A stretch of 64,000 nucleotides of DNA from Styela clava (Eukaryota), in contig NC_135260.1 of NCBI RefSeq assembly GCF_964204865.1, positions 5,642,001 through 5,706,000 on the forward strand, in the 5' to 3' direction. The position numbers and the translations under genes were made by a program. A model generated the notes under the pieces. That model saw nothing but the letters and a program-made list of their open reading frames with translations, did no database searches and had not been told where the DNA came from. Of this stretch, positions 15,253-53,801 are shown piece by piece. The number at the start of each line of letters is the position of its first letter. The first letter of the stretch is position 1.

Positions 15253-16756
15253 ATGAGGAAACATTCAAAACTCTTCAATAGCAAATGGTTGTTTATGCAG
15301 ATAGTTGGTGAGATCCCACTTACATAAATAGTTCCAAATCAAGAAATAAATGTACATTTGTTACCCAAAAACATAGTAGCCTGATGAATTCTCATCCAAA
15401 GTCATTCATGAAATAATAATTTTAATATTAGATTTTCATTAATATAAGATTTCTAAATTGTTTAAAAAGAAGAGTAATGGAGTTTTATACAATATAATTC
15501 TCAACCATGTATTAGATTGAGAAAATATCAATTCTATACATATAAACGTGTTTTGGGCTTCATGAGACTGATGAAAATTGGATAGATTTCGCAATGTTGT
15601 AATTGTAAAAACTTATTTCTTTATAGCACTAAGCATCAGTCTGAATGAAGCGGCATCCTGCACTGATTGTTCAAATCCAATACTTGGAACAACCACTTCT
15701 AAACCAAGTAAATCTTAAACAGCATAAAAAATTCAGTTTAAAAGTAAAACATCCAATCCTGAAATAAACTTTCCTTTCAAATTACAGCAGCAACAAATGG
15801 ATGGGAAACAACAACAAAATATCCAGAAGAAATTTCGACAACACTCAAAGCTGAACAGACTACAAAGCTGAACGGTCTACAAACGGAAATTTCGACAACA
15901 CTGAAAGCTGAACCAAATACAAAAGACAAAAGTAATGAAATTTTATTTGTCAAAACAATAGCAATTATCCAATACACAATCATAATAAAAACTAAACTTC
16001 ATGAATTTCAGTTAGTGAAGCTGAGCAGCAAACAACACTATCTGATTCAGACAGAACTGAATCTCATTCAACAACTGATTTGGACAAAAACATCACAGTT
16101 ACCACGGAAACCAATGGAAGTTCTGATTTATTGACAATTGCAATTCCATTGTCAGGAATAGTTGCTTTTATCTTGGGAGCTTTGTCAATCTTTGTCATAC
16201 GAAGGTAACAAGTAAAACAACACATAGTAGCAATAATTTCTCCACAATACTTTCACTTTGAATATCGTTTTGAAAATTCGGCGCAATTTCAAGGTTTCGT
16301 TTGAATGTGGTTGAACAATATGCTAATAAATATTTTTATTAATATTTTGAACCCAGGTATTGCAACAAAAACAAGAAACCGAAAAAGAAAGATTCAATGG
16401 AAATTGGAAGCATCCAACATCAGCAGCCAACTGTCCATGAACGAACAACATATGAAAACTACACACCAACATCAGATGAAAGTGGATATGAAGTTCCGAA
16501 TCAAGTTGATAACAAGAATGAACAAAGTGGATATGAAGTTCCGATTCCAGTTGATAACAAGAATGAACAAAGTGGATATGAAGTTCCGAATCCAGTTGAT
16601 AACAAGAATGAACAAAGTGGATATGAAGTTCCGATTCCAGTTGATAACAAGAATGAACAAAGTGGATATGAAGTTCCGATTCCAGTTGATAACAAGAATG
16701 AACAACAATATGAGGTTGTGAGAAGCGGAGCAGAATACCAATATGAAAATGCGTGA
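15253..16756 (+). CDS. Copy 3: receptor with in-frame deletion of the CUB-like domain, 5 tail repeats (~290 aa)
   Basis: Exons 15253-15307, 15627-15707 (start of exon 2 fused to end of exon 3, 81 nt), 15788-15931, 16012-16204, 16357-16756. Frame is open throughout. Confidence 0.82.
16481..16705 (+). repeat. Coding 45-bp tandem repeat x5 (SGYEVPxxVDNKNEQ)
   Basis: Unit agtggatatgaagttccga(a/t)tc(a/c)agttgataacaagaatgaacaa repeated five times. Confidence 0.95.
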
Positions 16757-19412
16757 ATGAGTGAAATAAATTCATCCAAACCTTTTGAATTGAAAAACTC
16801 GTGTTTTTTAGAAAAAAACACAAGTTATGGATTTCTCTCATGAAGAACTAAAATATTTATTTGTATTGAAGTCCAATTCATTTTGACTTCTGACTGAAGC
16901 AATGACAAATTGTGGAAGATTTTATAATTTGTGTTGTATTTTTTTTAATCAGGTCATTGTTTTATCAGAATTCTTCACATAATATATGAAGGATAGGGTT
17001 TTGAACTAAATATGAGTAGTAAGTATATTAATATATTTGAGTGTCCATAAAAAGCAATGATCTGAGAGGGATTGTCTGTACCCCTTCTTGTCATATTTTC
17101 GCTTGTCATTAGATGAAAGTGTGCTCATAATGAATAAAAATGAACGATTATGTTTCTGAATATCTTGAAAAATTTGATCACTATTTAGCTCTTTAAGCTT
17201 CGCTGAACTAATAATGGGTTATAAAGTCATGCTAACAATTGAGTTAAAAAGCTAACATTGAGACATCAAAAATTATGAGCAAAAGTCGTAACTACTGAAT
17301 TTAGGAAACTATGATAGTTCCACTCTGTACAGGTTTCACTTTCAACAACAATTTTTTGGCTAAAACATTTCAGTACGCACTTCAGCGTTTGAAATGAACT
17401 TTCTCCTACATGTCCTAGCTGTATTCCTAATAGCGATGTGCTCAATTATTTCAAGTCATTATCTACTAGAAACACTGTCCCTTAGAATGTCATTTGACAC
17501 TTACAAAAAATAGTCTTTTTAGTAAACAGTTCAGTTTTTTTAAGTCTTTCAAACTTCTAGAGCTTGAGACCATTCTTTGATTAAATTTTGGAGAAATATT
17601 CATTGCCTACTATAATTATTTCTACACCCATGCATTAATAATCTTGTGTGTTGACTTCTGATAGAAGTAAAAAAAAAAAAAAAAGAATTTCATATCATGG
17701 CAAAGAGAAAAACAAATAATACATGCTTAAATTGGTGAAATTGATAATTTTTCAAGTGAAACTATCCCAACAATATAATTTTCAACCATGTATGAGATTG
17801 AGAAAATATCAATTCTATACATATAAACATGTTTTTGGCTTTATAAGACTGATAAAATATGGATAACTTTTTTTGTTAATTCAAATACAGTAGACAAAAT
17901 ATAATTATTTTCGAATCGATTTGAATACCGGTAATTGATTTTGGACATTCCAGGGAACCTACCACTTTCAAACTAATATTTGCGACTGTTTCTGCATGTC
18001 TTTTTAAAATATCTTAGTGTTTTGTTTTGTTCAAACCATAATCAGTTTGCTATTGTTTAAATATAACATAAATAAATTTATTGTAAAATATTGAGTGCTG
18101 AACATTATTAAACAATATTTAATGGGAGTCACGACAAAAAGTATCACGTCACCAGAAAATGCTGTGATTACCTAATCGCCCACAATCTCGCAGTTTTAAA
18201 GCAGTTAGTAGTATGGGATAGGTTTAAAACTGAACTTCAAATGAAATTTAAAAATGACTGAAAAAGTTTAGTTGCAGCAGATAAGATGCAAAAATCCATT
18301 GACAGTAACCAGTAATGCTAACCAGTTTACTGATCTCATAAAATTCTGTAAGACGGTTTTATAGAACCGGTGCGAACCGGCTGAATTCCACCACTGAGCA
18401 TATCGAACTAATATAGAAACCCACTGAGTGAGTGTGCATGAGTAGGGACAAATGGACCAATAAATTTGGTCCGACCCGAAATAAAAGATACATGAATTCA
18501 TTGCTTAATCAAGCTACATTACTATAATTTAAACTAATAAACTGATATGCGAAAAATAATTGTTAATATTACCAATAGCAACTCTGCAATGTAAGAATAT
18601 CTGAATATGGCATACTTCCTGACTGTCGGTCGACATTCTGACACTTTTTTTCACCCATAAGTGATAAATCAACTTCCTATAAACCAGAATCAAACATGGT
18701 GATAGTACATTATACAATTAATATCTATAATCAGCAGTATTTGATGAAACAATCATCAGTGAGCATTGCTAATAATTTTAGTTTCTATCATTAGTCATAG
18801 AGGGAAACTCGTTTGAATTAATTATCCAGAATTTATAAGTTAGACATTATTAGTAGACTGAAATAAATAACAACAATTTACAAGATATGCAACTCAAGAG
18901 TCCTGGTACACACTAAGACAGATATAATTCAGATATAACGTTTCATCTGACCAAAATCAGACTTCCTCTTGTCATCATGCGGTTTAAATGTGGCGATAAA
19001 TAAATTTGTTTAAAAATAGTTGTGACCCAAATAATGAGTTAATTATTTATATTTAGAAACAGATTGTGACGAAAAAAATACAATCAGACTCTTGAATTGT
19101 ATAGTATGGTATTTTTATTCCTGCTACAGCATCCTTGCATTATCTGCATACGATTCCACTAGCGCAAGGGCATTGAGAAAGGATTGGGAGTTAGTCTAAC
19201 GCAACCTGTACTTATAATTTACAAGATGTTCCAATAATACGCAAATGACAATTTCAAGTTTCGTTTGGCTTTATTTTCCAGCAATGTGGTTGACAAGGGA
19301 ATCTCACTTAAACCTTACAGTAGGTTTGACATCTCAAATGCTTTCTTTCAAAATGGCCTACGAGAGTATTTTCACATTTCAGAACAGGACCCAGTCCTGT
19401 AGTTTAGTAATC

Positions 19413-19620
19413 AGTACTCCCGTAGTATATGTACAAGGGGAGGGCCATAATTTTATTCCAATTTTCCCTATTTTAGTTCTATTACGAGCTCGGGACTGTC
19501 TGTGTTAGCCAAGTGAATATACCTCCTGCCCATACGTTTCAGTCACTTTACACAACTTGGTGTAAAGTAGGCGAACAAAATTAGTTACCTCCATATTGCT
19601 ACATATACTACTGGAGAGCC
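19413..19620. mobile_element. Merlin-like MITE upstream of copy 4
   Basis: Same element and insertion site. Confidence 0.7.
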
Positions 19621-20112
19621 GAGTAATCAATAGATATATCAATGAGTAAGTATTTTAGCAATTCCAAATCATTCCCATCATCCACTAGAAACTAACCTGT
19701 TTAAGGACTGTTTGACCTATGAATCAAATGTTCTAAATTGTAACAAAGAAAATCTTACACTTCTATACAAATGTCAAACATTACAAAATGCCAAGATAAT
19801 ACATGACACAAGTAGATCATCGCTATGCTGTAATGGTATTTCACCCACATCATTAATTAAAAAAATAAATATAAGTCAGTAATCATCAGCCTATGTAGTA
19901 GAAACTAGAGAGAGGTGTTTCATATTCACTGATTCACATTAACAATGAGAGATTCTAAATTAAAATCAGATGGTTGTTACATTAAGTGTTGAAACAGTTC
20001 TTGTATTTTATCATTTGGATTTTGTCTCTATGTCAGTATTGTGTAATGAATTAAGTGATTGAAAAAACAAAGCAAAGAAAAGTTCAAAGAAGTTGCTGAA
20101 GATAAACTAAAC

Positions 20113-22863
20113 ATGTGGAAACATTCAAAACTCTTCATTTGCAAATGGTTGTTAATCCAGATAATTGGTGAGATCTTACTTAGATAAATAGTTCCAAATC
20201 AAAAAATAAATGTACATTTGTTACCGAAAAAACATAGTAGCCTGATGAATTCTCATCCAAAGTCATTCATGAAATAATAATTTTAATATTAGGTTTTCAT
20301 TAATATAAGATTTCTAAATTGTTTAAAAATGGAGTAAAGGAGTTTTATACAATATAATTTTCAACCATGTAATGAGATTGAGAAAATAACAATTTTATAC
20401 ATATAAACATGTTTTTGGCTTTACAAGACTGTTAAAATATGGATGGATTTCTCAATGTTGTAATTGTAAAAACTTATTTCTTTATAGCACTAAGCATCAG
20501 TCTGAATGAAGCGGCACCCTGCACTGATTGTTCAAATACAATACTTGGAACAGAAAGTAAGAATATCACATATGGACCAAGTAATGAATACAACTGCAAC
20601 TGTGATTGGACGATACCAACAAGAATGGACACAGATCATGGAACTGCAGTTGTTCTGGTGTTACAAAAAAATTCAATGCTAATGACAACTGGTAGTGGAA
20701 TTACAGACTGCTCTGGGGAAATCAGATTCCCAAGTAAGCTATATTATACTATTCTAGCTATATTATACTATTACTATACTAATATACGACAACCGTACAG
20801 CAACAATTATTAATAAAAAAACATTAGTAAATACAAAATTGTATCAATACTTTTACAGGTACTGTTTCTCATAAATGCGACTTTCCAAGAAACTACTGTC
20901 TTGCATTTGCAACTGCATCAACCGTTTGCAACATCAACAAAATCAGAGAGAAAATTCCAGTTGCAAATCACACCTGTGATTCAATCATTTCATGGAATGA
21001 AGCTGGAGGAAGCCCATATAAGATACGATATTATGCAAGAAATTATGCTGGTTACTCAAAATACTTCACAATACAATATCTTGTAATAAATTGCAGACCA
21101 ACAACCACACCTGCACTGAGTGAGTAATTTTTTATTTATGCAATGCCTAATCATGTCTTATGCTCAAGTAATCACAGATATACCAATCTATAAAGAACCA
21201 TATTTATCACACCCGGGAGAGGTGGTGGGATGGGGGGAACCTGAGATGTGTATCCTACAACTGGAGTGGGCAAGGTTTTGGACTAGAGGCCAGAAAGTTT
21301 GCCCACCTAGAATGACGGGCCATGTAAGTATAACGTGAAAAGTTACATTTTATGAACGATACCCAGTGTTACAAAAGTAAAAGTGGAAAACAATAAGCCT
21401 CGTGCCAAAACTAAATTAATCGCAATCTCAACAAATTCCTCGAGCTATTTTTAGCTAAAATATAAAAATTAAGTTTTAGTTTGGTTATGGCAGCATCAGG
21501 CGGGCCAAATTGAACTACCAAACGTTCCGATTATGGCCCGCAGGCTATAGTTTGCCCATGTCAGTCCTACAATGTCAACACAGTTTAAGTGTAACATTTT
21601 AACCACTAGGGCCAGGCGACCACGCCCATATTGCTCTTGTTGAACGATATATCTCAATTTCAGGATGTGAGAATCAAACTTTTATTACAAAATTTTAGCC
21701 ACGATAACTGAGCAAGCAACAACAATAGCAACTCATCCAAAAGATACATCATCTTATGAAACATTCTCAACCACTGAATCAACCAGAACCGCTGACAACA
21801 TTCAATGTCCCATTGAAGACTGTGAATGCACCAGCACCCAAGTATCAGAGGAGAATACAGTACCAAACTATTCTCAAACATCACTGATCATTGCTATTCC
21901 AGTGTCAGGAATTGTGGGTTTGATCATTGGAGTTTTGTTGACACTCATAATACCAAAGTAAGCATTGATGGTATAAATTAGATGAATATCATTTATGTTA
22001 CTCAAGTATGCTTGAATACAAGATATCAACAAAGGATTCAACCCAGTACTGTTAAGTCAGTGATAATCTCCATCTTCTGATTGCAAGATTACCAAAATTC
22101 TAACCCAGTCTCAAGCTGCTAATCATGAGTCTACAAGATTTTGACCTCAACTCTCAACTCCACAAATAATAAAAATGACTGACTCTATCTTCTGATGCCT
22201 ATGTTCTATTGAATCAAGTTGATTTTACCAATCTAATTCAAAGTTTAGAGAAAAAAACATAGTACTGTATCCAGATACTGCTGGATGACAATATTTTAAC
22301 TTTGATCATTGTGGAAGTTGCAAGCCTCATTAGTTTCAATTAGAAACGCTAATGACTATAGAATCTTAATAATTTATAATTTTAATTATAACTATTGAAA
22401 CTTGAACAACTAACTCCAGCCATAGTGCATGATTGCCAACAGGTAAATTCATGTTGATAATAAATGGAACACAACCAGTGTTAGCAGCCATGTTTCCAAT
22501 AGAAGCCTCAAATATCAAATTCACATTTTTGTGTGGGACCCAGTGAGGTAATGAAGCAAATGTCAAAATTAAAAGTGATTAGTCTCAGTGACTCTATCTA
22601 TGAATTATTCATCAACTTAGATTATATTTCTATCCAACACCAGGTACCGCAACAACAACAACAAGAAACCAAAGAACAAAGATTCAATAGAGATTGGAAG
22701 CATTCAACAACAGCAGCCAACTGTACATGAACGAATAACATATGAAAACTACGCACTAACATCAGATGAAAGTGCATATGAAGTTCCGATTCCAGTTGAT
22801 AACAAGAATGAACAACAATATGAGGTTATAATAACTGGAAAGGAATATCAATATGACAATTGA
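20113..22863 (+). CDS. Copy 4: CUB-like membrane receptor, full length (~346 aa)
   Basis: Exons 20113-20167, 20488-20733, 20859-21119, 21699-21957, 22644-22863, open frame. One tail unit (SAYEVP). Confidence 0.88.
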
Positions 22864-25251
22864 AAGCTTGGACATATCTTTTTTGAAAGTCACAAACTAT
22901 GCCACAGAAATTTTGTTACATAAATTTGGGCAAAAACATGAACTAAACTTTGATCAGCTCTCCGGAGCAATTTAGAAGTTGTTTGCATCTGTGATCTATA
23001 TTCTTCAACAACGTTTAACATAATAAATTATATCAATTTACAATTATCTATATTTAATACATTCGATTCGAAGAACTTTTCATGCAGTGCCTTATCTGGG
23101 AAAAGTTCTAGCCCAAGCAGCCGCTCAGCATATTCTACTATTATAGATGATCTGTGAGTGAGTGTGCATGAGTAGATAACTAATGGACCAATCAAGATCT
23201 TTGCATAAGTGTCTGGATCAGTTGTTTCAAACCTATAATTACTGTCGCCCCCTTACAGCACTCTACACATCACATCGCCCCCGGCAAATGAAGAAGAAGA
23301 AGAAATGATAACACAAACCCAATTAAAAAATAATATTACAGTATGGTGTTTGTGAGACAAACGAGCTCGAGATCTTCAGCAAATTTATTTTATGTCCAGA
23401 GATTATTTGGTCAGGTACAATCTTAGATCACCCATTTCTTTATGTCAAAGCTTAAAACCTTCCCGGTTCTACTTCCACGTAAATGAGCAGGTATTTGCTA
23501 GATGACTTGCGCCAAAATATATCAAATTCCTTCTTGCAAAAATTCATTTCGGTTTGCGATAATTTTGACTATTTCCCGAAAGCATTACCCCCAATGTAAC
23601 CTCCAAAGGAATGCTACTGGCTTCTTATTATAACAAAATCCAGTTTACACAACTGGTGACCAACAATTGTCAGTATTTTTACATGCTTCTTAATCGCAAT
23701 GAATTTGAAATGCTTCTAAAATAAGTTTTCTTGCCTGTTTTCTGATTTCGTTTTTGTTTCAAATGTCAAATAAATATATTTACAGTTCATATTCACAGAA
23801 GTCTTCTTCTGGTTTGTAAATTAGATTTGTTCAATATAAGAAGCAGGTCATAGTATAAACACTTTTCACTCCAATCAAGGCTTCAGATAAACAGTCAGTA
23901 AAAATACAACTTAAATACACAACTATATACACACAATCGGCATCATTTAATCATTAAATCACAATATAATAATTTGTTAACACAACTCATGTTACAATTA
24001 CAAACTATATCTCTCTAGCCAAAACTGTAGAAAAACAGCCAGTGAGACATATAAGACTGCTGAAATCATAAAGAGCATAATCATTGCAGTTCAGCAAACT
24101 CTAAACAATACATAACCAATTGGGATAAGTTTAGGAATGAATTGTTAAGTAGAACAAAATGAGAGAAAAGTGGAAACCAAAAACTATGAGGACAAAACTA
24201 ATCTAACAGGTATTAAGCTGTCCAACATATATTGAATATTGTATTAAAAATTGTATTCTTCTATTCTTAAATAATTCAATATAGGTTGTGAAGCAAAGCA
24301 ATGTTCCCTGAAGTCTGAATTATAATAGGAGAGAGATAAGCAACATTTATGAATCTGATTCTTATATATGTTCAATGTAATGAAGAAAACCTGACTGAAG
24401 TATATAAATACATGAATGAGGGGAACCACTACCCACTTCCCTCAATAAAAAGGAAAATAAATGTGACCCATGAGTGAGGTAATCTACCATTTATGGTGAC
24501 TGTGGATATAGCCTCACCCCAAAAACAACACCCATTAATAAAAATTTACCTAATTAATAATTATAGACAGAAGATGGCTGGATATCTTAATATGGCATAC
24601 TTCCTGATTGTCGGTTGACATTCTGACAATTTCTTCACCTATGAGTGATAATTCAACTTCCTATAAACCAGAATGAATGATGATCGTAGTACGTAATACA
24701 ATAAATATCTATAATCAGCAGTATTTGATGAAACAATCATCAGTGAGCATTGCTAATAATTTTAGCAGAGCGAAACTAGTTTGAATTAAATTTTTAGGAT
24801 TTATAAGTTTAGACATTGTTAGTAGAATGAAATAAAAGGACAACAATTTACAAGAATATTTCTGTAACGTTTCATCTGACCAAAGACAGACTTCCTCATA
24901 CAAAGAGTTTACAACAATCAGGAATCTTGGAAAGTATAGTTATGTTCATTTCTTCTACAGCATCCTTGCATTATTCGCATACGAATCGACAAGCATAGAG
25001 GGCATAAAAGACCGATGGGAATTAGTCTTGCGTAACCTAGCACACCATTTACAAGATGTCGCAATAATACAGAAATGACATTTTCAAGTTTCCTTTGATT
25101 AAAAATCTTCCACAAACGGTTTTCAGCAATGTGGCTAAGAATGAAATATCACTTTACAGTATCTTTGACATCTCAAAAGGTTTATTTCAAAATGGCCTAC
25201 GAAAGCATTTTCTCATTTCAGAACACGACCCAGTCCTATAGTGGAGTAATC

Positions 25252-25457
25252 GGTACTCCCGTAGTATATGTACCAGGGTTAGGCCATGATTTTCTTCCGA
25301 TTTTCCTTATTTCAGTTTTACCACAAGTTCGGGGACTGTCTGTGTTGGCCAATTGAATATACCACATCATAGGTTTCAATCAATTCATACAACTTGATGT
25401 AAAGTAGGAGAACAAAATTAATTACCTCCATATTGGTATATACAATTCTGGAGTGAC
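25252..25457. mobile_element. Merlin-like MITE upstream of copy 5
   Basis: Same element and insertion site. Confidence 0.7.
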
Positions 25458-25886
25458 GAGTTATCTATAGATATATCAATGAGTAAGTATATTAGCAATT
25501 CCAAATAATGTCCATCAAGCACTTGCAATCTTACACTTTTATACAAATGACAAACAAAAATGCCAAGACAATGCATGACACAAGTAGATCATCGCTATGT
25601 TGTAATGATATTTCGCCCACATCCTAATTATAATAATAAATATAAGGCAGCAATCATTACAAAAAAGAAACCAGAGGGAAGGAAGTGTTTCATAGTCACT
25701 GATTCCTATTAACAAGGAGAAATTCTGAATATAAATCAGAAGCTTGTTACATCAAGCGTTGAGACAGGTCTTGTATTTTATCAGTTGGATTTTGTCTTTA
25801 GCTATGTTAGTACTGTGTAATGATTTGAGTGATTGAAGAAACAAAGCAAAAAGAAGTTCAAAGAAGTTGCTGAAGATAAACTCAAC

Positions 25887-27255
25887 ATGAGGAAACATTC
25901 AAAACTCTTCAATAGCAAATGGTTGTTTATGCAGATAGTTGGTGAGATCCCACTTACATAAATAGTTCCAAATCAAGAAATAAATGTACATTTGTTACCC
26001 AAAAACATAGTAGCCTGATGAATTCTCATCCAAAGTCATTCATGAAATAATAATTTTAATATTAGATTTTCATTAATATAAGATTTCTAAATTGTTTAAA
26101 AAGAAGAGTAATGGAGTTTTATACAATATAATTCTCAACCATGTATTAGATTGAGAAAATATCAATTCTATACATATAAACTTGTTTTGGGCTTTATGAG
26201 ACTGATGAAAATTGGATGGATTTCGCAATGTTGTAATTGTAAAAACTTATTTTTTTATAGCACTAAGCATCAGTCTGAATGAAGCGGCATCCTGCACTGA
26301 TTGTTCAAATACAATACTTGGAACAACCACTTCTAAACCAAGTAAATCTTAAACAGCATAAAAAATTCAGTTCAAAAGTAAAACATCCAATCCTGAAATA
26401 AACTTTCCTTTCAAATTACAGCAGCAACAAATGGATGGGAAACAACAACAAAATATCCAGAAGAAATTTCGACAACACTCAAAGCTGAACAGACTGCAAA
26501 GCTGAACGGTCTACAAACGGAAATTTCGACAACACTGAAAGCTGGACCAAATACAAAAGACAAAAGTAATGAAATTTTATTTGTCAAAACAATAGCAATT
26601 ATCCAATACACAATCATAATAAAAACTAAACTTCATAAATTTCAGTTAGTGAAGCTGAGCAGCAAACAACACTATCTGATTCAGACAGAACTGAATCTCA
26701 TTCTACAACTGATTTGGACAAAAACATCACAGTTACCACGGGAACCAATGGAAGTTCTGATTTATTGACAATTGCAATTTCATTGTCAGGAATAGTTGCT
26801 TTTATCTTGGGAGCTTTGTCAATCTTTGTCATACAAAGGTAACAAGTAAAACAACACATAGTAGCAATAATTTCTCCACAATACTTTCACTTTGAATATT
26901 GTTTTGAAAATTCGGTGCCATTTCAAGGTTTCGTTTGAATGTGGTTGAACAATATGCTAATAAATATTTTTATTAATATTTTGAACCCAGGTATTGCAAC
27001 AAAAACAAGAAACCGAAAAAGAAAGATTCAATGGAAATTGGAAGCATCCAACATCAGCAGCCAACTGTCCATGAACGAACAACATATGAAAACTACACAC
27101 CAACATCAGATGAAAGTGGATATGAAGTTCCGATTCAAGTTGATAACAAGAATGAACAAAGTGGATATGAAGTTCCGATTCCAGTTGATAACAAGAATGA
27201 ACAACAATATGAGGTTGTGAGAAGCGGAGCAGAATACCAATATGAAAATGCGTGA
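25887..27255 (+). CDS. Copy 5: near-identical duplicate of copy 3 (CUB-deleted), 2 tail repeats (~245 aa)
   Basis: Exons 25887-25941, 26261-26341, 26422-26565, 26646-26838, 26991-27255. Offset of 10634 from copy 3. Confidence 0.8.
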
Positions 27256-30200
27256 ATGAGTGAAATAAATTCATCCAAACCTTTTGAATTGAAAAACTCG
27301 TGTTTTTTAGAAAAAAACACAAGTTATGGATTTCTCTCATGAAGAACTAAAATATTTATTTGTATTGAAGTCCAATTCATTTTGACTTCTGACTGCAGCA
27401 ATGACAAATTGTGGAAGATTTTATAATTTGTGTTGAATTTTTTTTAATCAGGTCATTGTTTTATTAGAATTCTTCACATAATATATGAAGGATAGGGTTT
27501 TGAACTAAATATGAGTAGTAAGTATATTAATATATTTGAGTGTCCATAAAAAGCAATAATCTGAGAGGGATTGTCTGTACCCCTTCTTGTCATATTTTCG
27601 CTTGTCATTAGATGAAAGTGTGCTCATAATGAATGAAAATGAACGATTATGTTTCTGAATATCTTGAAAAATTTGATCACTATTTAGCTCTTTAAGCTTC
27701 GCTGAACTAATAATGGGTTATAAAGTCATGCTAACAATTGAGTTAAAAAAGCTAACATTGAGACATCAAAAATTATGAGCAAAAGGCGTAACTACTGAAT
27801 TTAGGAAACTATGATAGTTCCACTCTGTACAGGTTCCACTTTTAACAACAATTTTTTGGCTAAAACATTTTAGTACGCACTTCAGCGTTTGAAATGAACT
27901 TCCTCCTACGTGTCCTAGCTGTATTCCTAATAGCGTTGTGCTCAATTATTTCAAGTCATTATCTACTAGAAACACTGTCCCTTAGAATGTCATTTGACAC
28001 TTACAAAAAATAGTCTTTTTAGTAAGCAGTTCAGTTTTTTTCAGTCTTTCAAACTTCTAGAGCTTGAGACCATTCTTTGATTAAATTTTGGAGAAATATT
28101 CATTGCCTACTATAATTATTTCTACACCCATGCATTAATAATCTTGTGTGTTGACTTCTGATAGAAGTAAAAAAAAAAACAGAAAATAATTTCATATCAT
28201 GGCAAAGAGAAAAACAAATAATACATGCTTAAATTGGTGAAATTGATAATTTTTCAAGTGAAACTATCCCAACAATATAATTTTCAACCATGTATGAGAT
28301 TGAGAAAATATCAATTCTATACATATAAACATGTTTTTGGCTTTATAAGACTGATAAAATATGGATAACTTTTTTTGTTAATTCAAATACAGTAGACGAA
28401 ATATAATTATTTTCGAATCGATTTGAATACCGGTAATTGATTTTGGACATTCCAGGGAACCTACCACATTCAAACTAATATTTGCGACTGTTTCTGCATG
28501 TCTTTTTAAAATATCTTAGTGTTTTATTTTGTTCAAACCATAATCAGTTTGCTATTGTTTAAATATAACATAAATAGGTTTAAAACTGAACTTCAAATGA
28601 AATTTGAAAATGACTGAAAAAGTTTAGTTGCAGCAGATAAGATGCAAAATCCATTGACAGTAACCAGTAATGCTAACCAGTTTACTGATCTCATAAAATT
28701 CTGTGAGACGGTTTTATAGAACCGGTGCGAACCGGCTGAATTCCACCACTGAGTGAGTGTGCATGAGTAGGGACAAATGGACCAATTAATTTTTGCTTGA
28801 GATGTCAAGATGACTAGCGGTGTGTTTTTAAGACAACAACAGCCTACTCACAATAAAACTAACTCAAAAGTGAAATTACAAACAAACACTCAAGAACCAC
28901 TTGATAATTAATTAATTAATTACTGTTGAGTAGAAGTTTAATTTACAACCATTTCTTATTTATGAACATCTAATAACTGACAAATATTCGGTATTTTTTA
29001 CAAGTATTTTAATAGCATTAAATTTGAAAATAATTCTACATTCTAAGAATGACTCACCTGATTTCTGATTTCTGTTTTGTTTCCTTTTTCAACTTCCTAT
29101 TCTAACAATTATGTTGTCACACAGATTCTGTAAAATGAATAAAATTAATCATACATTCATGTCTAATAAATTTTGGCAGTTTCCAAGAAGCAAAAGTCTG
29201 GTTAGTAAAGAATATTTATACAATGTAAGATGGAAGGGTATATTCCAAGAAATCTTTCACTTCTATAAAGGCTCAGCACAAAAGAATAAATAAAAAAGTG
29301 AATTTTGGAAATTTACTTGGGAAGTGAGAGTTATTAGTGGCTGAAATCACGAATCATAATAAAACACTATGACTCTAATCTAAACCTTATCTAATCAAAT
29401 ATACAAAACTGCTGAAATGGAAAAAGCATAACCGATCTAGTTTCCAACTTCACCAACTCCTCATTGTCAGTTTACAATAAATAAATAATAATTTGACCTC
29501 AATAGATAAATAATCTACTATTTATGGTGACTCTGGATATATCTCCAACTCAATATAAAAGACACATGAATTCATTGCTTCATCAAACTACATTACTAAA
29601 ATTTAAACTAATAATCTGATAAGCGAAAAATAATTGTTAATATTACTGAAAAAAATTCATCTCGCAATGTACGAATATCTGAAGATGGCATACTTCCTGA
29701 TTGTCGGTTGACATTCTGACACTTTCTTCACCTATGAGTGATAATTCAACTTCCTATATACCAGAATCAACGATGCTCATGGTACATAACACAATAAATA
29801 TCTATAATCAGCAGTATTTGATGAAACAATCATCAGTGAGCATTGCTAATAATTTTAGTAGAGGGAAACTAGTTTGAATTAATTTTCTAGGATTTATAGG
29901 TTTAGACATTATTAGTAGACTGAAATAAAAGAACATTCATTTACGAGATTATTTCTGTAATGTTTCATCTGACCAAAGACAGACTTCCTTAGACAAGGAG
30001 TTTACAACAATCAGGACTCTTGAATTGCATATTATAGTCATGTTCATTCCTTCTACAGCATCATTGCAATATACGCATACGGATCCACAAGCATAGAGGG
30101 CATAGAAGAAGGATGGGAGTCTCGCGTAACCTAGCACACAATTTACACACAATTTACAAGATGTCGCAATAATACCGAAATGACATTTTCAAGTTTTGTT

Positions 30201-30363
30201 TGACTAAAACTCTATCATAATACGGTTTCCAGCAATGTGACTAAGAATGAAATATCACTTAAACTTTACAGTAGGTTTGACATCTCAAATGCTTTCTTTC
30301 AAAATGGCCAACAAGAGTATTTTATTATTTCAGAACAGGACCCAGTCCAATAGTTGTGTAATC

Positions 30364-30575
30364 AGTACTCCCGTAGTATGTACCAGGTTGGGGTTAAGCC
30401 ATAATTATATTCAGATTTTCCTTTTTTTAGTTCTATTACGGGTTTGGGGACTGTCTGCGTTAGCCAAGTGAGTATACCTACTGTCCATAGGTTTCAGTTC
30501 CTTTACACAACTTGATGTAAAGTAGGCGAACAAAATTAGTTACCTCCATATTGGTACACACACTTCTGGAGCGCA
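30364..30575. mobile_element. Merlin-like MITE upstream of copy 6
   Basis: Same element and insertion site. Confidence 0.7.
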
Positions 30576-31065
30576 GAGTAATCTATAGATATATCAATGA
30601 GTAAGTATATTAGCAATTCCAAATCATACACATGAACCACTAGAAACTAATCTGTTTGAGGAATGTTTGACCTATGAATCGAATGTTTCAAATTGTAACA
30701 TAGTAATTATTACACTTCTATACAAATGACAAACATTACAAAATGCCAAGATAATACATGACACAAGTAGATCCTCGCTATGTTGTAATGGTATTTCACC
30801 CACATCGTTAATTATAATAATAAATATAAGTCAGTAATCATCAGCCTACGTAGTAGCAACCAGAGAGAGGTGTTTCATGGTCACCAACCATTAACAAGGA
30901 GAGATTCTGAATATAAATCAGATGGTTGTTACATTAAGTGATGAGACGTGTCTTGTATTTTGTCAGTTGGATTTTTGTCTCTATGTCAGTACTGTGTAAT
31001 GAATCAAGTGATTGAAAATACAAAGCAAAGAGAAGTTTAAAGAAGTTGCTGAAGATAAACTCAAC

Positions 31066-32371
31066 ATGTGGAAATATTCAAAACATATCAATTGCAAATG
31101 CTTGTTTATGCAGATAATTGGTGAGAAACTGAGATCTTACTTGAGAAGTCGACATTTTTTAACTAAAAACATAATAACCTAATGAATTCTCATACAAATT
31201 TAAGCATAAAATATTGATTTTAATATGAGATTTTTATTATTAATATCAGATTGCTCAATAGTTTAAAAACAATAATAATGGAGTTTTACACATTATACCT
31301 TTTATTAAACCCCGAAATAAGATTGAAAAAATATCAATTCCAGGTACTCCTGTAGTATGTGAACCAAGATGGCAGACACCGGAACGTAGTATGTGTATCA
31401 GGTTAGAGTTAGGCCATAATTTCATCTATTGTATTTGAGCTATTGCGTCTATATAAAGGTGTTATGTGATATTGTGTCGATATAATGTGATGTTTTTATT
31501 AATACAAAAAAAACAAAAATTTCAGGTACAAATACTATGGGAGTCACTTGGCTAGTCCCCGAACTCGAAATAGAACTAAAATGGGAAAATTGGAATAAAA
31601 TTATGTCTTAACCCTAACCTGGTACACATACAACATTCCGAGGCCCGCCGTCTTGGTTCACATACTACGGGAGTACCCAATTATATAGGTATGAATACCA
31701 TTACCGTATATATAACTTATAAGTGTGTTTTTGGAAATATAAGCCTGCAAGAAAATTTGAAGGATTTTTAAATGTTATTGTGAAACATTTTATAGCACTC
31801 AGCATCAGTCTGAATGAAGCAGCAATATGCACTGATTGTTCAAATACAATACTCAGAACAGAGAGTGTGAATATCACATATGGACCAAGTAATGAGTACA
31901 GCTGCAACTGTGATTGGACAATACCAGAAGATATGGACACAGATCATGAAACTGCTGTTGTTCTGTTGTTACAAAATTTTTCATTACCGAGGACAACTAG
32001 TAGCAGTACTACACACTGCTCTGGGAGAATCAGATTTCCAAGTAAGTGTTCAGTACAATACAAGTATAAAGTAATTAAAAACAAATGATGCTTCACTTGT
32101 TAGAGCAATATAATTGTTCTACAAGTATCAAATGGTCTGGGACATTTGCAATTAACTCAACAATACTAATGTAATTTATGCAGGCACTGATGGATACAAA
32201 TGTGAATTTGCAAGCAACTACTGTCTTGTATTCGAAACTACATCAACCACTTGCAACATCAACAAAATCAGAGAGAAAATTCCAGTTGCAAATCACACCT
32301 GTGATTCAATCATTCCATGGGATAAAGCTGGAGGAATCCCATATAAGATACAATACTATGCAGGAAACTGA
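31066..32371 (+). pseudogene. Copy 6: 3'-truncated copy, either a secreted CUB-like fragment (~162 aa) or a pseudogene
   Basis: Exons 31066-31120, 31796-32041, 32184-32371. Homology stops at ...YYAGN with TGA at 32369-32371. No stalk, TM or tail exons follow. Confidence 0.75.
31343..31677. mobile_element. Related long-TIR MITE in intron 1 of copy 6
   Basis: About 80-bp inverted ends (ggtactcc.gtagtatgtgaaccaaga...). Degenerate 8-bp TSD caattcca/caattata; the empty site in paralogues reads caattcta. Confidence 0.75.
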
Positions 32372-33287
32372 GTACATTTTAAATGTAAACGTATTATTCA
32401 TAAATAATTGTTAATATCAAAAAAATAAGGAAAAATGTCTTGCAATGTAAGAATATCTGAAGATATACTTCTTGATAGTCAGTTGACATTTTGACACTTT
32501 ATTCACCAATAAGTCACAATTCAACTCCTTATAAACCAGAAACAATAAAATGAAACAAATATCATAAAAATTTCATGAATAGATTTACTTCCTTTAGGAA
32601 GGTTTCCAGTAAATTAATCATTTGACAGTTTCTTTACATACGAGAAGTAATTCAACATTTTGTATATCATCATCGGTTGTGGTTTACGTGGTATACTGAA
32701 AGATCACTATAGTCAGCACTAGATAAGAGGTTAATACTCAGCATCAGTAGAGTTCTGAGCTGCCAGGAATTGGAAGAAAGTATGAAAGGTTCAAGATTCA
32801 TCATAATGATAAACCATCAACCAATAGCAACTAAACTGTGTCAAAATTAGTAAGAACTAGTTGGTCTATGACTCAAAAGTCAGATTTATAGCAGCGAAAT
32901 TGCTATGATCCTATTAGAATGACAAACATTACAAAATGCCAAGATAATACATGACACAAGCAGATTATCACAATGTTGTAATAATATTTCGCCCACATTC
33001 TCAATTATAATAATGAATATAACTAATTGCAATAATAAGTAATTGCAAATCAGTAATCATCATTACGTAGTAGCAACCAGCGAGAGGTGTTTCATAGTCA
33101 CTGATTTACATTAACAAGGAGAGATTCTGAAAATAAATCAGAAGCTTGTTACATCAAGTGTTGAGACAGGTCTTGTATTTTGTCAGTTGGATTTGTCTTT
33201 ATCTATGTTACTACTGTGTAATGAATTGAGTGATTGAAGAAACAAAGCAAAGAGGAGTTTGAAGAAGTTGCTGAAGATAAACTCAAC

Positions 33288-35085
33288 ATGTGGAAACATT
33301 CAAAACTCTTCAAATGCAAGTGGTTGTTTATGCAGATAATTGGTGAGATCTTACTTACATTAAGTTTAGTTACACATTCTGCTGTTACACAACCAACTGT
33401 GATGGGCATTATTAGTTGTTATTCGAAAGTTTCAAATTATTTACAATTACAGTACCGGTAATTTCAAATTGTCTTATCAAATTATAATAAGCAACTTCTT
33501 TAAATTCAAATCGCGAGAAAGGAGGTTATTTAACTTTTGTTTTCAAAACATATTTCACATCCAGATTCAATATAAAAAATTATATAATTTCAACTACCTC
33601 GACTTTTAAATACCTCGAACGTTAAAAATAGGAATAATTAAGTTTTATACAATTATTCATGGATTTAAGAATCTGTAATACAATTGAAAAAGGATTATAA
33701 AATATATTTGATTTATAAATGTGTTTTAAAATTCGTAGTTATTCCAATTAAAAAAAAGTTATATTGTGAATGAATAACTTAATTTCTTTTTAGCATTTAG
33801 TATTGGTCTGAATGAAGCAGTACGATGCACTGATTGTTCACCTAAAATACTTGAAACAGAGAGCAAGAATATCACATATGGACCAGGTAATGAATACAAC
33901 TGCAATTGTGATTGGACAATACCAACAAGTATGGACACAGATCATGAAACTGCAGTTGTTCTGTTGTTACAAAATGTTTCACTGCCAAGAACAACTGGTA
34001 TTGGAAGTACAGACTGCTCTGGAGAAATCAGATTCCCAAGTAAGTACAATACTCGAATATGCTAGATCCATTAAATACTAAATCACAATTATTGGTCGAG
34101 AGACATAGCTGCAGTCAGGATTTTCCAAAAGGGAGTGTTCAAAATCAATAATAACCATGTAGAGCTGACGAAAACGATAGGCAGTTTTAACAAAAGTATG
34201 CATGTAAATTCGTACACAATAACAGCTGGTACTCTTCTGGTTATCCTGTAATTTTTAAAAGGGGGAGGGCGTTGAACCTGAAACACCCATCTGACTGCGC
34301 TACTGTCTACAAATATCAGATTTCCTGGTACCACTAATAATTTATTCAAGAATACTAATGTGCTTTTTACAGGCACTGATGGATACAAATGTGAATTTGT
34401 AAGCAACTACTGCTTTGTATTTGCAACTACATCAACCACTTGCAACATCAGCAAAATCAGAAAGAAAATTTCAGTTGCAAATCACACCTGTGATTCAATC
34501 ATTCCATGGAATACAGTTGGAGGAAGCCCATACAAGATACAATACTATGCAGGAAACCATGCTGGTTACACAAAATACTTCACAATACAATACCTTGTGG
34601 TGGACTGCAGATCTCCAACAGCCACTTTTAAACCAAGTATCATTAAGTCATAAATAGCAAAGAAACTTTTAGTTCAGCAGTAAAACATCCAAACCTAAAA
34701 ATGAACTTTTTTCTTTCAAATTACAGCAACAACAAATGGATGGGAAACAACAACAAAAAATTCAGAAGAAATTTCAACAACACTGAAAGCTGAACAAATT
34801 TCAAAGGACAAAAGTAATAAAAGTTTATTTATCAAAACAATAGCAATAATCCAATACACAATGACATTAAATTTAAACTTATTATAAATTCCAGTTACCA
34901 AAGCTGCGCAGCAAACAACAATATCGGATTCAGACAGAACTGTATCTCATTCTACAACTGATTTGGACAAAAACGCCACCGTTACCACGGTAACCAATGG
35001 AAGTTCTGCTTCACTGATGATCGGAATTCCAGTGTCAGGAATAGTTGGTTTTATCTTTGCAGCTTTGTCAATGTTTTTCATATAA
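33288..35085 (+). CDS. Copy 7: CUB-like domain, stalk and TM with no cytoplasmic tail (~280 aa)
   Basis: Exons 33288-33342, 33794-34039, 34373-34636, 34727-34813, 34895-35085. TAA at 35083-35085 sits where paralogues have CAA/CGA, right after the TM. The tail exon is absent and nested transposons occupy its place. Confidence 0.75.
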
Positions 35086-35417
35086 AGGTAACAAGTAAAA
35101 CAACACATAGTAGCAATATTCTCCTCGCAATACTTTCACTTTTTATATTGTTATTGAATATTGCATTGCATTTACAATATTGTTTTAAGAATTAAGTATT
35201 CATATATCCTCACATATAAGCCGAACTATTGTTCTGTTTTACTTTTATTAATATCGATAAGAATTGTTTCAAAATCATTCCAATTCATCCTCACGATCGC
35301 TTATCGTGTATCACTATCGTATAGAACAGGGTGGTCCAAACCCAGGCCCGCCGTTTCATTATCTGTCACTGAGTTTTTTGATGGTTTCAGCATGATCTGG
35401 CTTGATATGTGACAATT

Positions 35418-35620
35418 GGTTCCATTACATTTGAACCCACGTACATTTGAACCCATGACAATTGCACCTGTATGCTATTGCACCTATGGAATTCTTTTTG
35501 TTTCACGGATAGTTAAACCCATACTAACCCTAACCCATGGGTTTTAGCACCCGCATATAGATTGAACCCGTGGATATACGCATGGATTCAAATGTACATG
35601 GGTTCAAATGTACGGTCACC
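35418..35620. mobile_element. MITE with 9-bp TSD (Mutator- or Merlin-like)
   Basis: Perfect TSD gtgacaatt. Inverted ends contain tacatttgaaccc repeats. Confidence 0.8.
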
Positions 35621-45915: not shown

Positions 45916-48260
45916 ATGTGGAAACATTCAAATCTCTTCAATTGCAAATGGTTGTTTATGCAGATAATTAGTGAGATTTTACTTACTAAAACTAAAAGCT
46001 AAAAATGAACAAATAAATGTACATTTGTCAATTAAAAACATAATAGTCCAATGTATTCTCATATAAATTTATTCATACAATAAATATTTTAATATTAAAT
46101 TTTCACTAATATTATATCGCTCAATTGTTTGAAAACAAGAGAAATAGAGTTTTATACATTATAACTTTTAAATTCTGTAATAAGATATGGAATATATAAA
46201 TATATGTATAAGAGCATTTTGGCAATATAAGCCCGCAAAAAAATTTGGATTGTTGAAATTTTATTGTAAAACTTTTCATAGCACTCAGCATCAGTCTGAA
46301 TGAAGCATGGGGACCATGTGCTGATTGTCCCAATATCATACTTGGAATAGAGAGTAAGAATATCACATATGGACCAAGTAATGAATACAACTGCCAATGT
46401 GATTGGACAATACCAACAAGTATAGAGATAGATAATGAAACTGCAGTTGTTCTGTTGTTACAAAATGTTTCACTGCCGATCACAACTGGTACTGGAAGTA
46501 TAGACTGCTCTGGGTCAATCAGATTCCCAAGTAAGCGTATATTATACTATTTTACTATTACTATACTACCGTACAGCAACAATTAATAAAAACATCACTA
46601 AATACATAACTATATCAATACTTTTACAGGCACTAATTCTCATAAATGTGATTTTCCAAGCAACAACTGTCTTGCGTTTGCAACTTCATCAACCATTTGC
46701 AACATGAACAAAATCAGAGAAAATATTCCAGTTACAAATCACACCTGTGATTCAATCATTCCATGGAATAACGTTGCAAGAGGAAGCCCATACAAGATAC
46801 AATACTATGCAGGAAACCGTTATGGATACACAAAATACTTCACAATTCAATATCTTGTGATAGATTGTAGACCAACAACAACCCCACCAGAAGCAGGTAA
46901 GTCATATACTTCTTGGTTTGCACATCTACACCAACACATAATTGTTTAATTCTCATAATGAAGATAAATTTATTTTCAGCGACAACAATGCAACAGAAAC
47001 AAACAAAAAAGGTTCCATTAACACTTGGAAGAATTATATGTGAAACAACAACTTTTGAAACCACCAAAATTACTGGTATGAATGAATCAAGTAAGTTCAT
47101 AAGTTTGCTTGTACGTCATAATTTTATGTCGATTTTCCTTATTTTAGTTATATTACCAGTTCAGAGACTGTCTGTGTTAGCCAAGTGAATATAAATAACC
47201 CTGCCTATAGGCTTTTGTCCCTTGATGTAAAAGTAGGGGAAAAAGATTAGTTACCTCCATATTGGTACACATACTTCTGGAGTGCCGTTGTTTTAAGATC
47301 AAATTCCTTGGATTTGTAAATAATCCTGTGTGAGATGTTTGACAGTTCAATAAAGAGTTTCTCTCCAAGATTCTGTTTTTCCAAACACTAGTAGATACTT
47401 ACCCAGCAGTGGCTGGCTGATTGTGTGTTCAGAGCGTAAGGCAAATGATACGTCTTGAAAAGCTATTCCAGTTGTAAAAAATCACTAAAGCCAAACAATT
47501 CTTTTCTAGAAATGACTACAAACACAAAAGAAACTGCCAGTGATCAAAAAATGTATAGAAAACTCAGATTCTGCATCCCTAACAATGATTGCAGTAGGTA
47601 CATCATCAGGATTTATTGTAGGAATCATCATCGGAGTTTTGACAACTTGCTTGATTCAGAGGTAAACAAGACAATTTACTGTTTTGTAAAATTAAAATAT
47701 TTCAAGAGCAATAAACTATTTAGTTTAGCTTATTTGATGCTCAAAAACAAAAAAAAAACTTTTGGAAATGGCTGTTCTAAGTGCTAACTTAACCAATTCA
47801 TTATTACCAAAACTTTATTAAAACCATAAAAAAAATTTTTTTTGATGGAAGATCGTATTTTACACTCGTTTGATGGATAATCTGCTTGATAAATAATAAA
47901 AATCTTCAATTTGTATCATTTTATTCAATATTAGTGTAATGAAAATAATTACATTATAATCCAGTCAAATACAGTATAAAAGGCTGTCAATGCAAATGTC
48001 AGTGCACCGTAATCATATTATTAAAAGTTGTAAAAATTATTGTAATTTGTAGATTATTGAGAAAAAAGAAGCAGAAAAACCAAATGGAAATGCAGAGCAG
48101 TCAACATCATCAACATACCACCATGAAAAATGCAGAATATGAAAATCATGAACCAACTTCAAACGGAAACGGATACGAAGTTATAATTCCAGTTGATAAT
48201 AAGAATGAAAGACCATATGAAGAGATAATATGTGGGATGGAATCTGCATATGAAAAATAA
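45916..48260 (+). pseudogene. Copy 8: copy with the most divergent stalk and tail; apparent +1 frameshift before the TM
   Basis: Exons 45916-45970, 46282-46530, 46630-46896, 46980-47090, 47510-47661, 48053-48260. Exon 47510-47661 is 152 nt where 151 is needed. Removing one A from the A6 run at 47546-47551 restores the TM (LTMIAVGTSSGFIVGIIIGVLTTCLI) and the tail (YENH, YEVI, YEEI). Confidence 0.7.
47115..47286. mobile_element. Partial Merlin-like MITE in an intron of copy 8
   Basis: Matches the body and right TIR (...catacttctggagtgcc). Confidence 0.6.
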
Positions 48261-51730: not shown

Positions 51731-53801
51731 ATGGATTCAAAAATAAAAATGATGACCTGCCAAAGCAGCATATGGATTCTCCTTGGTAAGAACATTTTCC
51801 ATATAGAATACTAATAGGATTTATTCATATTTATTCTGGAAGGGAGCAAATCATCTTGTCATGTGACAAATTATGGCCTCTCTGCCAGTTCCATGTTGGA
51901 TATGGGAAGAGTTAACTAGTTTATCTCCCACAATTATTCAGTACCAAAAGCAGCACATATTACCGAAATTCTAGATATAGTGCTCAAAAGTGGGCTTAAC
52001 CTGTTCTGGTAGGACAACAAATATCTTGTACCAGTCCATGAAAAACAATTGATTGAAGGTGAACGGTACAGATGCTATGAACACACAACTGCACCGATAT
52101 AGTAAAACTAGCAGTCAAAATGAAGAAATCCGAAATGATCTTTATATATTAATTGTGAATATTGAAAATATTACACCAATCTACAGTAAGCATAAATTAT
52201 ACAGAATGAGAAATGAATACCTTGTATATTTTTTTCAGCTATTATGATCAATGTGAATGAAGCATATCAATGCCCTAGTTGTCCCAAAATAACACTTGGA
52301 ACAGAGAACAAGAATATCACATATGGACCAAGTAATGAGCGGGACTGCCAATGTGATTGGACAATACCAACAAGTATGGCCACAGATCACGAAACTGCAG
52401 TTGTTCTGTTGTTACAAAATGTTTCATTGCCAATGACGGCTGGTAGTGGAAGTAGAGACTGCTCAGGAGAAATCAGATTTCCAGGTGAGTATTCAATACT
52501 CTTACGCAGGTAAAACTAGTTGTTGATGAAAATAAACTTTGTGCAGGTGCTAGTGGACACAGATGTGATTTTGCAAACAACCAGTGTATTGTTTTTACAA
52601 CTGAATCAACCATTTGTAACATGAACATAATCAGAGAGAAAATTCCAGTTGCAAATCACACCTGTGATTCAATCATTCCATGGAATAATGCTGGAGGAAG
52701 TCCATATAATGTACAATACTATTCCAGAGGCTATGTTGGTTACACAAAATACTTCACAATACAATATCTTGTGGTAGATTGTAGATCTTCAGCAACAACT
52801 TTTAAACCAAGTAAGTCATAAACAGCAAAAACATTCAGTTTAACAGTAAAACATCCAACACTAAAAATGAATCTTTTTTTTCTCAAAATACAGCAACAGC
52901 AAATGGATGGGAAACAACAACAAAGAATCCAATAGAAATTTCGACAACAGAAAAAACTGAACGGACTACAAAAAACAAAAGTAATAAAAGTTTATTTGTC
53001 GAAACAATAGCAATCATCCAATACACAATCATAGTCAAAATTATTATAAATTTTAGTTACCGAAGCTGAGCAGCGAACAACACAATCTGATTCCGGCATA
53101 ACTAATTCTCATTCCATATGTGATTTGGACAAAAACATCACCATCACCACGGGAATCAATGGAAGTTCTGATTCACTGATGATCGCAATTCCAGTTTCAG
53201 GAATAGTTGGTTTTATCTTTGGAGCTTTGTCAATGTCTTTCATACAAAGGTAAGAAGTAAAATAACAGTAGCAATATTTTCCCCTCGTTACTTTCAATTT
53301 GTATATTGCTTTTGAATATTGTTTTGAGAAATAGGCATAAGTCATTCCGGGTTTTGTTCGAATATGATTAAACAATATGCTATTAAATATTTTTAACCCA
53401 GGTATTGCAACAAGAACAAGAAGAAATTGAAGAACAAAGATTCAATGGAAATGGGAAGCATTCAACATCCAGAGCCAACTGTCCATAAACGAACAACATA
53501 TGAAAACTACACACCAACATCAGATGAAAGTGGATATGAAGTTCCGAATCAAGTTGATAATAAGAATGAACAAAGTGGATATGAAGTTCCGAATCAAGTT
53601 GATAACAAGAATGAACAAAGTGGATATGAAGTTCCGAATCAAGTTGATAACAAGAAGGAACAAAGTGGATATGAAGTTCTGAATCAAGTTGATAATAAGA
53701 ATGAACAAAGTGGATATGAAGTTCCGATTCAAGTTGATAACAAGAATGAACAACAATACAAAGTTATGACAACTGGAAAAGAATATGAATATGAGAATTA
53801 A
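51731..53801 (+). CDS. Copy 9: full-length receptor with a distinct first exon, 5 tail repeats (~414 aa)
   Basis: Exons 51731-51785 (MDSKIKMMTCQSSIWILL, 55 nt, gtaag donor; inferred), 52239-52484, 52547-52810, 52894-52980, 53057-53249, 53402-53801, open frame. Confidence 0.82.
53529..53753 (+). repeat. Coding 45-bp tandem repeat x5
   Basis: Same unit repeated five times in the tail exon of copy 9. Confidence 0.95.

Follow-up and report, generated by a model that had tools for sequence, protein, structure and literature searches.

Why should members of one receptor family that have lost complementary parts lie side by side in a genome? This question is raised by a window of 64,000 nucleotides in the 377-Mb genome of the solitary ascidian Styela clava (contig C14, NC_135260.1, positions 5,642,001-5,706,000), which contains 11 copies of a receptor gene, all on the + strand. 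The original prediction proposed that copies without an ectodomain (3 and 5), a copy without a tail (7) and a potentially soluble copy (6) could act as signalling adaptors, a membrane decoy or co-receptor and a soluble decoy, respectively, i.e. as a split receptor, with turnover in a birth-and-death array as the alternative. Our analyses indicate that the truncations probably arose separately, in three events involving deletion, recombination and point mutation within a birth-and-death array of 39 CUB-fold genes, and not as a jointly built split receptor. Copy 6 is then likely dead, the form represented by copies 3 and 5 is likely an expressed but weakly constrained phosphotyrosine scaffold, and copy 7 is likely a non-signalling, possibly glycosylphosphatidylinositol (GPI)-anchored binder.

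The tandem array extends over ~260 kb (5.528-5.787 Mb). Its 39 copies, counted in the window and 250 kb of flanking DNA, correspond to 38 exon-2 matches and one hybrid copy detected separately; outlying copies are found at 6.16-6.19 Mb, at 19.04-19.05 Mb and on contig C13. Intact genes successively comprise a signal exon, two CUB exons (~150 residues), one or two Ser/Thr stalk exons, a transmembrane (TM) exon and a tail in a single exon, and they code for single-pass receptors with tyrosine-rich tails. The gene models were built on AG/GT exon boundaries. All exons from the signal exon through the TM exon begin in the same phase, and therefore the loss of CUB exons can stay in frame.

Copies 3 and 5 indeed keep the signal peptide, the stalk, the TM segment and the tail without the CUB domain. 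Their exon 2 is an 81-nt in-frame hybrid that joins the normal exon-2 start to a type-B exon-3 end, and their stalk, TM and tail sequences are open. However, they result from one in-frame deletion event that was later duplicated rather than from two, as they are 95-98% identical in DNA and the array holds five near-identical copies of this form, four open and one with a 2-nt insertion ahead of the TM segment. Intron 1 of copy 3 is nearest to that of copy 4 (6.3% versus 15-26% difference, with eight compared), and the 3' introns of copies 3 and 5 are 13-20% distant from those of copies 7 and 9; hence, the CUB-less form probably arose by fusion between two adjacent genes. The stalk of copy 3 has 107 residues, 36% of them Ser/Thr, and its 144-nt stalk exon type is confined to the CUB-less copies in the window and its flanks. 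Similarly, a protein search with the TM exon yielded matches only within the CUB-less cluster. The tail contains 11 tyrosines and five YxxP motifs in copy 3, which matches RefSeq LOC144429758 from residue 19, and eight tyrosines in copy 5, which is identical to RefSeq LOC144429950.

Evidence for transcription comes from contigs of three public runs (X5, X6 and X8) that we guessed to be RNA, none being recorded as such; contigs were taken as evidence of presence, not of absence, and read depth was not used as a measure of expression level. The spliced stalk-TM contigs of X5 and X6 have three differences from copy 5 and a single one from the nearest copy, located just upstream of the window, and run X8 provided only a first exon of the CUB-less type. 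RefSeq models all four open CUB-less copies, with an extra isoform that skips the hybrid exon at two loci. The protein XP_039272827.1 of an older RefSeq annotation has the identical hybrid junction. As 12-15 of 245-260 residues distinguish it from each open copy, it comes from a different assembly or haplotype.

Another RefSeq isoform without a CUB domain (P0048), independent of the first and with a tail of the other class found in the family, is encoded at ~6.18 Mb. At this locus (LOC120347529, 6175565-6180440, L028-L029), one isoform uses a donor inside exon 2, giving an in-frame CUB-less protein with a YSVV/YAVV tail. CUB loss thus recurs in the family, helped by the shared exon phase.

Copy 7 retains the ectodomain and TM segment and has no tail, as had been predicted. 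It carries two lesions, a nonsense codon (CAA to TAA) just ahead of the TM-exon donor and the loss of the tail exon, none being found between the tails of copies 5 and 8. A sister gene at 5,716,470-5,720,461 (RefSeq LOC144429676) is also devoid of a tail exon. Along the TM exon and the read-through region that follows, the two genes differ at a single position in 332 nt, but their CUB domains have diverged (dS 0.12, dN 0.09, with 31.5 non-synonymous differences). They therefore seem to share a common tail-less module behind two different CUB domains, which a putative recent conversion explains without any need for selection. Contigs of X6 and X8 start at the acceptor at 34895 and continue past the old donor, with 3/326 and 5/258 differences, respectively, versus 48/306 for the intact copy 9. 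The C-terminus of copy 7 consists of a cluster of small residues and a hydrophobic end without basic stop-transfer residues. When a hand-written omega-site rule was applied to the sister protein (P0029), four of 17 positions passed, 25-28 residues from the end, with a hydrophobic spacer (Kyte-Doolittle, KD, 1.4-2.4). The predicted C-terminus of copy 7 resembles a GPI signal.

In copy 6, the original prediction of a signal peptide and most of the ectodomain was confirmed, and the stop codon in exon 3 was found to be formed at a deletion junction. At 32369, after 1 nt of microhomology, exon 3 gives way to DNA with homology to the sequence lying upstream of copy 7's sister. The product ends ahead of the last CUB strand (168-178) and of the invariant Cys179 (domain model numbering), and the last strand is central to the CUB sandwich. 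This type of junction is unique in the window and its flanks, and it is seen solely in the present assembly. In RefSeq, copies 6 and 7 are combined in a single odd model (P0045). The bin 32615-32948 has zero depth in each of the three RNA-guessed runs; an X6 contig departs from the window at 32369, and none of the contigs continues beyond the junction. This absence is weak evidence alone, yet it is in line with the anatomy. Copy 6 is probably dead, and the soluble-decoy role attributed to it is not borne out. Copy 8 is a better candidate for a soluble decoy: its TM exon (47472-47661) has a +1 frameshift, and RefSeq models it as P0021, a soluble protein of 190 residues in which the CUB domain is complete.

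Table 1. Features of the receptor copies discussed here (positions in the window)
Feature	Position	Strand	Details
Copy 3, CUB-less receptor	15253..16756	+	290 aa; exons 15253-15307, 15627-15707, 15788-15931, 16012-16204, 16357-16756
Copy 3, hybrid exon	15627..15707	+	CxxC pair kept; AACA microhomology near 15688-15691
Copy 4, intact	20113..22863	+	Gene model
Copy 5, CUB-less receptor	25887..27255	+	245 aa; exons 25887-25941, 26261-26341, 26422-26565, 26646-26838, 26991-27255
Copy 5, 144-nt stalk exon and TM exon	26422..26838	+	Spliced contigs from runs X5 and X6, 26565->26646
End of tail with probable long 3' untranslated region, CUB-less lineage	27191..28576	+	1.3-kb contigs in X5 and X6
Copy 6, breakpoint fragment	31066..32371	+	162 aa; exons 31066-31120, 31796-32041, 32184-32371; stop within exon 3
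Copy 6, deletion junction	32369..32380	+	Intergenic DNA upstream of next gene starts here and gives TGA
Copy 7, tail-less	33288..35085	+	280 aa; exons 33288-33342, 33794-34039, 34373-34636, 34727-34813, 34895-35085
Copy 7, TAA from CAA at TM-exon end	35083..35085	+	Common to sister 5716470-5720461 (P0029)
Copy 7, former last intron	35086..35226	+	Read through in X6 and X8 contigs; identical in sister; sequences part after 35226
Copy 8	45916..48260	+	+1 frameshift in TM exon, from comparison with sister
Copy 9, type-B member, intact (its stalk and TM exons are of the type seen in copies 3, 5 and 7)	51731..53801	+	Tail with 45-nt repeats

The birth-and-death alternative received direct support. 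At least six of the 39 copies are broken, namely copies 6 and 8 and, outside the window, the CUB-less copy with a frameshift and three copies further downstream (two with frameshifts and one with a nonsense codon); this is a lower bound, as the exons of upstream copies were only partly checked, and single-base breaks may be assembly errors. The claim that all frames are otherwise open is thus correct for copies 3, 5, 6 and 7 but not for copy 8 in the same window. Two cluster-B loci that are broken in the present assembly are full-length in the older annotation; exon 3 of LOC120347529 is broken in the former and intact in the latter. Tandem duplicates, pseudogenes and differences between haplotypes are all present, and they directly show birth-and-death turnover in the array. 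The truncated forms sit side by side because the array often breaks and duplicates.

Could the truncations be mere assembly errors in a repeat-rich array? Such errors might be favoured by the long near-identical repeats within it, single-base frameshifts beside homopolymers, as in copy 8, could be of this nature, and the copy 6 junction is known from one assembly. However, the hybrid junction is found in five diverged copies and in the older annotation, the TAA codon is present in two copies, and contigs from other samples match both lineages. We therefore regard this explanation as extremely unlikely.

A more serious alternative is that all truncated copies are transcribed pseudogenes that hitchhike on segmental duplication and have no role at the protein level. 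The copies lie within duplicated blocks of 3.5-5.3 kb that include intergenic DNA, many of their neighbours are broken, and the exon-3 donor of copy 7 is weak. Furthermore, the variation among the five CUB-less copies, one of them frameshifted, looks neutral, with 17/467 non-synonymous versus 4/136 synonymous sites varying (p=1.0), 22/604 variable columns in coding versus 34/927 in non-coding DNA (p=1.0), and one disabling hit observed for 2.0-2.9 expected (P 0.21-0.42). No purifying selection was seen among these copies, with low power. In contrast, frames and splice sites are open in four of the five CUB-less copies and in the protein of the older assembly, and spliced and read-through contigs occur in runs from separate studies, although neither point is statistically decisive. 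On balance we consider a purely pseudogenic nature possible but somewhat unlikely, and we retain independent truncation events, with the two membrane forms likely acting as a scaffold and a binder.

Several observations weigh against the latter reading as well. The tests of neutrality are weak, as the dN/dS ratio over the stalk and TM exons is 0.86 even between two intact copies and the single disabling hit for 2-3 expected gives P 0.2-0.4. These exons are nearly unconstrained in intact copies and thus cannot separate live from dead ones. The first part of the tail is conserved, with dN/dS values of 0.26 between CUB-less and intact copies and 0.31 among intact ones (12 intact and 4 CUB-less tails out of 19), and four tyrosines are invariant in 19/19 tails; most of the path of divergence between CUB-less and intact tails predates the deletion. 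The CUB-less form has persisted in five copies and in a second assembly whose protein is ~5% different, and two of its loci have two RefSeq isoforms each, which argues for more than drift. Conversely, among the contigs listed for the three runs none spans the hybrid junction, and none is shown to include the TAA codon. RefSeq has no full-length model for copy 7 itself, whose exon-3 donor is weak (GTATCA), the GTAAGT donor present in the sister 6 nt downstream being mutated in copy 7; hence, the sister may be the working copy. The dN/dS comparison that had been suggested for the retained exons is thus neutral-looking among the CUB-less copies, and it neither shows nor excludes function. The ectodomain-less and tail-less lineages have nevertheless persisted and multiplied and appear to be transcribed, and their co-option is possible.

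We then weighed the split receptor as such, in which the tail-less chains (copy 7 and its sister) would bind the ligand and pair in the membrane with signalling CUB-less chains (copies 3, 5 and their sisters), with copy 6 as a soluble decoy. Both membrane forms stem from the same type-B stalk and TM exons, both are duplicated and have contigs, small-xxx-small motifs are visible in the alignment of their TM segments, and copy 7 and its sister bear different CUB domains on nearly identical tail-less 3' modules. There is also a tunicate precedent: in the available portion of PMC12582321, Botryllus FF/FcoR combines a motif-less receptor with a co-receptor that has tyrosine motifs. However, the truncated forms have independent origins, they number five versus two copies without any paired arrangement, copy 6 loses a core strand, and intact members already hold both halves. 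In the alignment, the TM segments of copies 3, 5, 7 and 9 contain no charged residue (D, E, K or R), and the tails of copies 3 and 5 (YENY, YEVP repeats, YEVV and YQYEN) have no YxxL/I pair typical of a canonical ITAM (immunoreceptor tyrosine-based activation motif). The pairing of CUB-less with tail-less forms has no support, and we consider a coordinated split receptor very unlikely. What survives of the adaptor and membrane-decoy proposal is that both forms are duplicated and have contigs in the RNA-guessed runs, and that the CUB-less form occurs in a second assembly.

If the truncations arose independently, as we favour, a simple scheme can be proposed. Intact members would bind a variable ligand through their CUB domain, and their YxxP and YEN/YDN motifs would serve to recruit SH2 proteins. 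The CUB-less chain, phosphorylated either together with intact receptors or tonically, would add docking sites according to gene dose and repeat number. The tail-less chain would compete for the ligand without signalling. A bolder possibility is that S. clava has a paired-receptor complex on a CUB fold, with inhibitory-motif-like and YEVP-repeat tail classes and diversifying ligand surfaces, that is evolving a modular split. In this case, a ligand-blind adaptor, amplified five-fold and tuned by the number of tail repeats, and CUB-less forms of both tail classes would coexist with a GPI-linked chain for binding, in which different CUB specificities are exchanged while the tail-less module stays constant. 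We deem this unlikely; if true, a split into receptor and adaptor would have been born recently, in convergence with Botryllus FF/FcoR and with the adaptors of vertebrates.

What, then, are the intact receptors? The CUB-like nature of their ectodomain, already suspected in the original prediction, was upheld by a domain-only structure model based on a 35-sequence alignment (predicted local distance difference test, pLDDT, 85.5; predicted template modelling score, pTM, 0.75). In the fold comparison VIA, its best match to a CUB domain has a Z score of 9.4, with a root-mean-square deviation (rmsd) of 2.7 over 110 residues, and ranks 1-21 are all CUB-containing entries, the top 17 of them with Z 9.4-8.0. 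Foldseek gave CUB domains as its top rows at E 0.004-0.03, with no match at E<=0.001 for the full-length or the domain-only model, and an Atlas search also provided a CUB lead. A model of a full-length member had a poor fold (pLDDT 46.9, best Z 5.8) and was superseded by the domain-only model. These predictions indicate that the ectodomain is a CUB beta-sandwich. Pfam searches with single exons found nothing above any cut-off for six exons and no family for 4/4 CUB exons, each of which codes for half a domain, and precomputed Pfam annotations list CUB in 0/31 homologues.

The CUB domains of 29 intact copies have a mean dS of 0.265 and a mean dN of 0.155 (406 pairs); this set did not include copy 6, a copy with a nonsense codon, a divergent copy or two further copies that lack an in-frame model. 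Site models (M1a/M2a, own fit on a fixed tree) gave a likelihood-ratio statistic (2dL) of 57.8 and placed 12.6% of the sites at an omega of 2.4. Diversifying CUB sites are a lead, since gene conversion, as reflected by a star-like tree, can inflate this signal.

The array contains two classes of tails. Those of the window copies have YENY, 45-nt repeats coding for SGYEVP... in numbers of 1 to >20, and YEVI/V plus YQYD/EN motifs. Those of upstream copies (5540000-5594000, L003-L009) harbour two Y[A/S]V[V/I] motifs, the last one resembling an ITIM (immunoreceptor tyrosine-based inhibitory motif) in several of them. The two motifs are 33 residues apart in six proteins and 29 in one, and paired YxxV motifs are present in upstream and cluster-B members only and absent from the window copies. 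Based on their motifs, the upstream members are candidates for the inhibitory class of a paired-receptor cluster. A shared-word search for YAVV-tail relatives gave six matches, all in S. clava and none outside, remote homology being possible with such a search. The member at 5616183-5617425 (L011) has a tail of 414 residues with 28 tyrosines and >20 repeats of 45 nt, the number of repeats differing among copies. At 5573050-5573900 (L007), a member's TM exon is followed ~570 nt later by exon 2 of the next member, the interval containing no tail exon, and RefSeq fuses both members into a 624-residue model. Multi-domain receptors made of upstream exon-2/3 pairs were ruled out, as each pair belongs to a separate gene that has a first exon and a tail of its own.

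All named family members are 'uncharacterized' RefSeq proteins of S. clava, and so are 31/31 exon-3 homologues. A profile search of 1.84 billion representatives gave 31 matches; ten were looked up, eight being from S. clava and two unnamed. More distant single-CUB, tyrosine-tail proteins of S. clava (P0046, P0047, P0052, P0054, P0059 and P0062), encoded on various contigs including C14, suggest a wider receptor family beyond the array. We found no published description of this family in the open-licence literature, and the available portion of PMC12065747 mentions neither Styela nor the CUB domain. The anatomy of the proteins points to a putative recognition or immune role.

Additional features were observed between the genes. 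A degenerate tandem repeat (50358-51702, period ~190 nt, 65-74% identity) lies upstream of the divergent first exon of copy 9 at 51731. Short high-copy elements at 30277-30610, 31279-31700 and 35287-35600 have very high read depth in 4/4 runs, and related short elements recur upstream of most copies. Copies 7 and 8 are separated by a 5.7-kb CpG-richer insertion without family exons (39160-44840), likely mobile-element DNA.

Truncated members as such are ordinary in receptor clusters. Of greater interest is the array, with its apparently diversifying CUB sites and its two classes of tails: these 39 CUB-fold genes with two kinds of tyrosine tails are candidates for an immune or self/non-self receptor complex of a solitary ascidian. 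The truncated lineages are young (~2% apart), and the way in which whole receptors give rise to adaptors and decoys can hence be tested directly on them.

How does this system compare with known ones? Adaptors such as LAT, PAG/Cbp, SIT and TRIM have a single TM segment, no ligand-binding domain and many tyrosine docking motifs. Copies 3 and 5 are alike in having many tail tyrosines (11 and 8), one TM segment and no folded ligand domain. Unlike them, copy 3 has a signal peptide and a long stalk instead of a very short ectodomain, and it arose recently from a receptor, whereas LAT-type proteins are old, single-copy adaptors. In DAP12/FcR-gamma-type systems, adaptor and receptor each carry a charged TM residue, and the adaptor signals through a canonical ITAM; copies 3, 5 and 7 have no such residue, and copies 3 and 5 have no ITAM. 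The CUB modules of neuropilin, Kremen, cubilin and C1s/MASP share the fold of the S. clava domain, with 5-20% identity. The latter has ~150 residues with insertions and extra cysteines, and the combination of a single CUB domain with a tyrosine tail sets it apart from these receptors.

Two systems come closer in the way that they work. In the available portion of PMC2832619, the CEACAM genes are arranged in tandem, have tails of opposite classes and undergo gene conversion; they include secreted forms generated by nonsense or splice mutations, and GPI-anchored members that arose repeatedly via a stop codon in the TM exon. The TM-exon stop with a hydrophobic C-terminus is a feature shared by copy 7. 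CEACAM proteins differ by their immunoglobulin (Ig) fold and have no sequence relationship with the S. clava receptors, and the GPI anchor and decoy role documented for them are predicted for copy 7. As for Botryllus schlosseri, the available portion of PMC12582321 describes FF/FcoR as tunicate type I receptors in tandem clusters, with tyrosine-motif tails, birth-and-death evolution, copy-number variation and intergenic recombination, like the S. clava array. Pairs of core-2 motifs in the FcoR C-terminus are 29-33 residues apart, which matches the spacing of 29 or 33 in the upstream S. clava members, although the residues that precede the motifs differ from the [A/D]V of FcoR. The FcoR ectodomain is Ig-Sushi-Ig-Ig, in contrast with a single CUB-fold domain on a Ser/Thr stalk in S. 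clava, and that portion of the article describes no ectodomain-less FcoR member. The S. clava array thus works like CEACAM or FF/FcoR while belonging to neither family, and it would extend the convergence reported for Botryllus to a non-Ig case.

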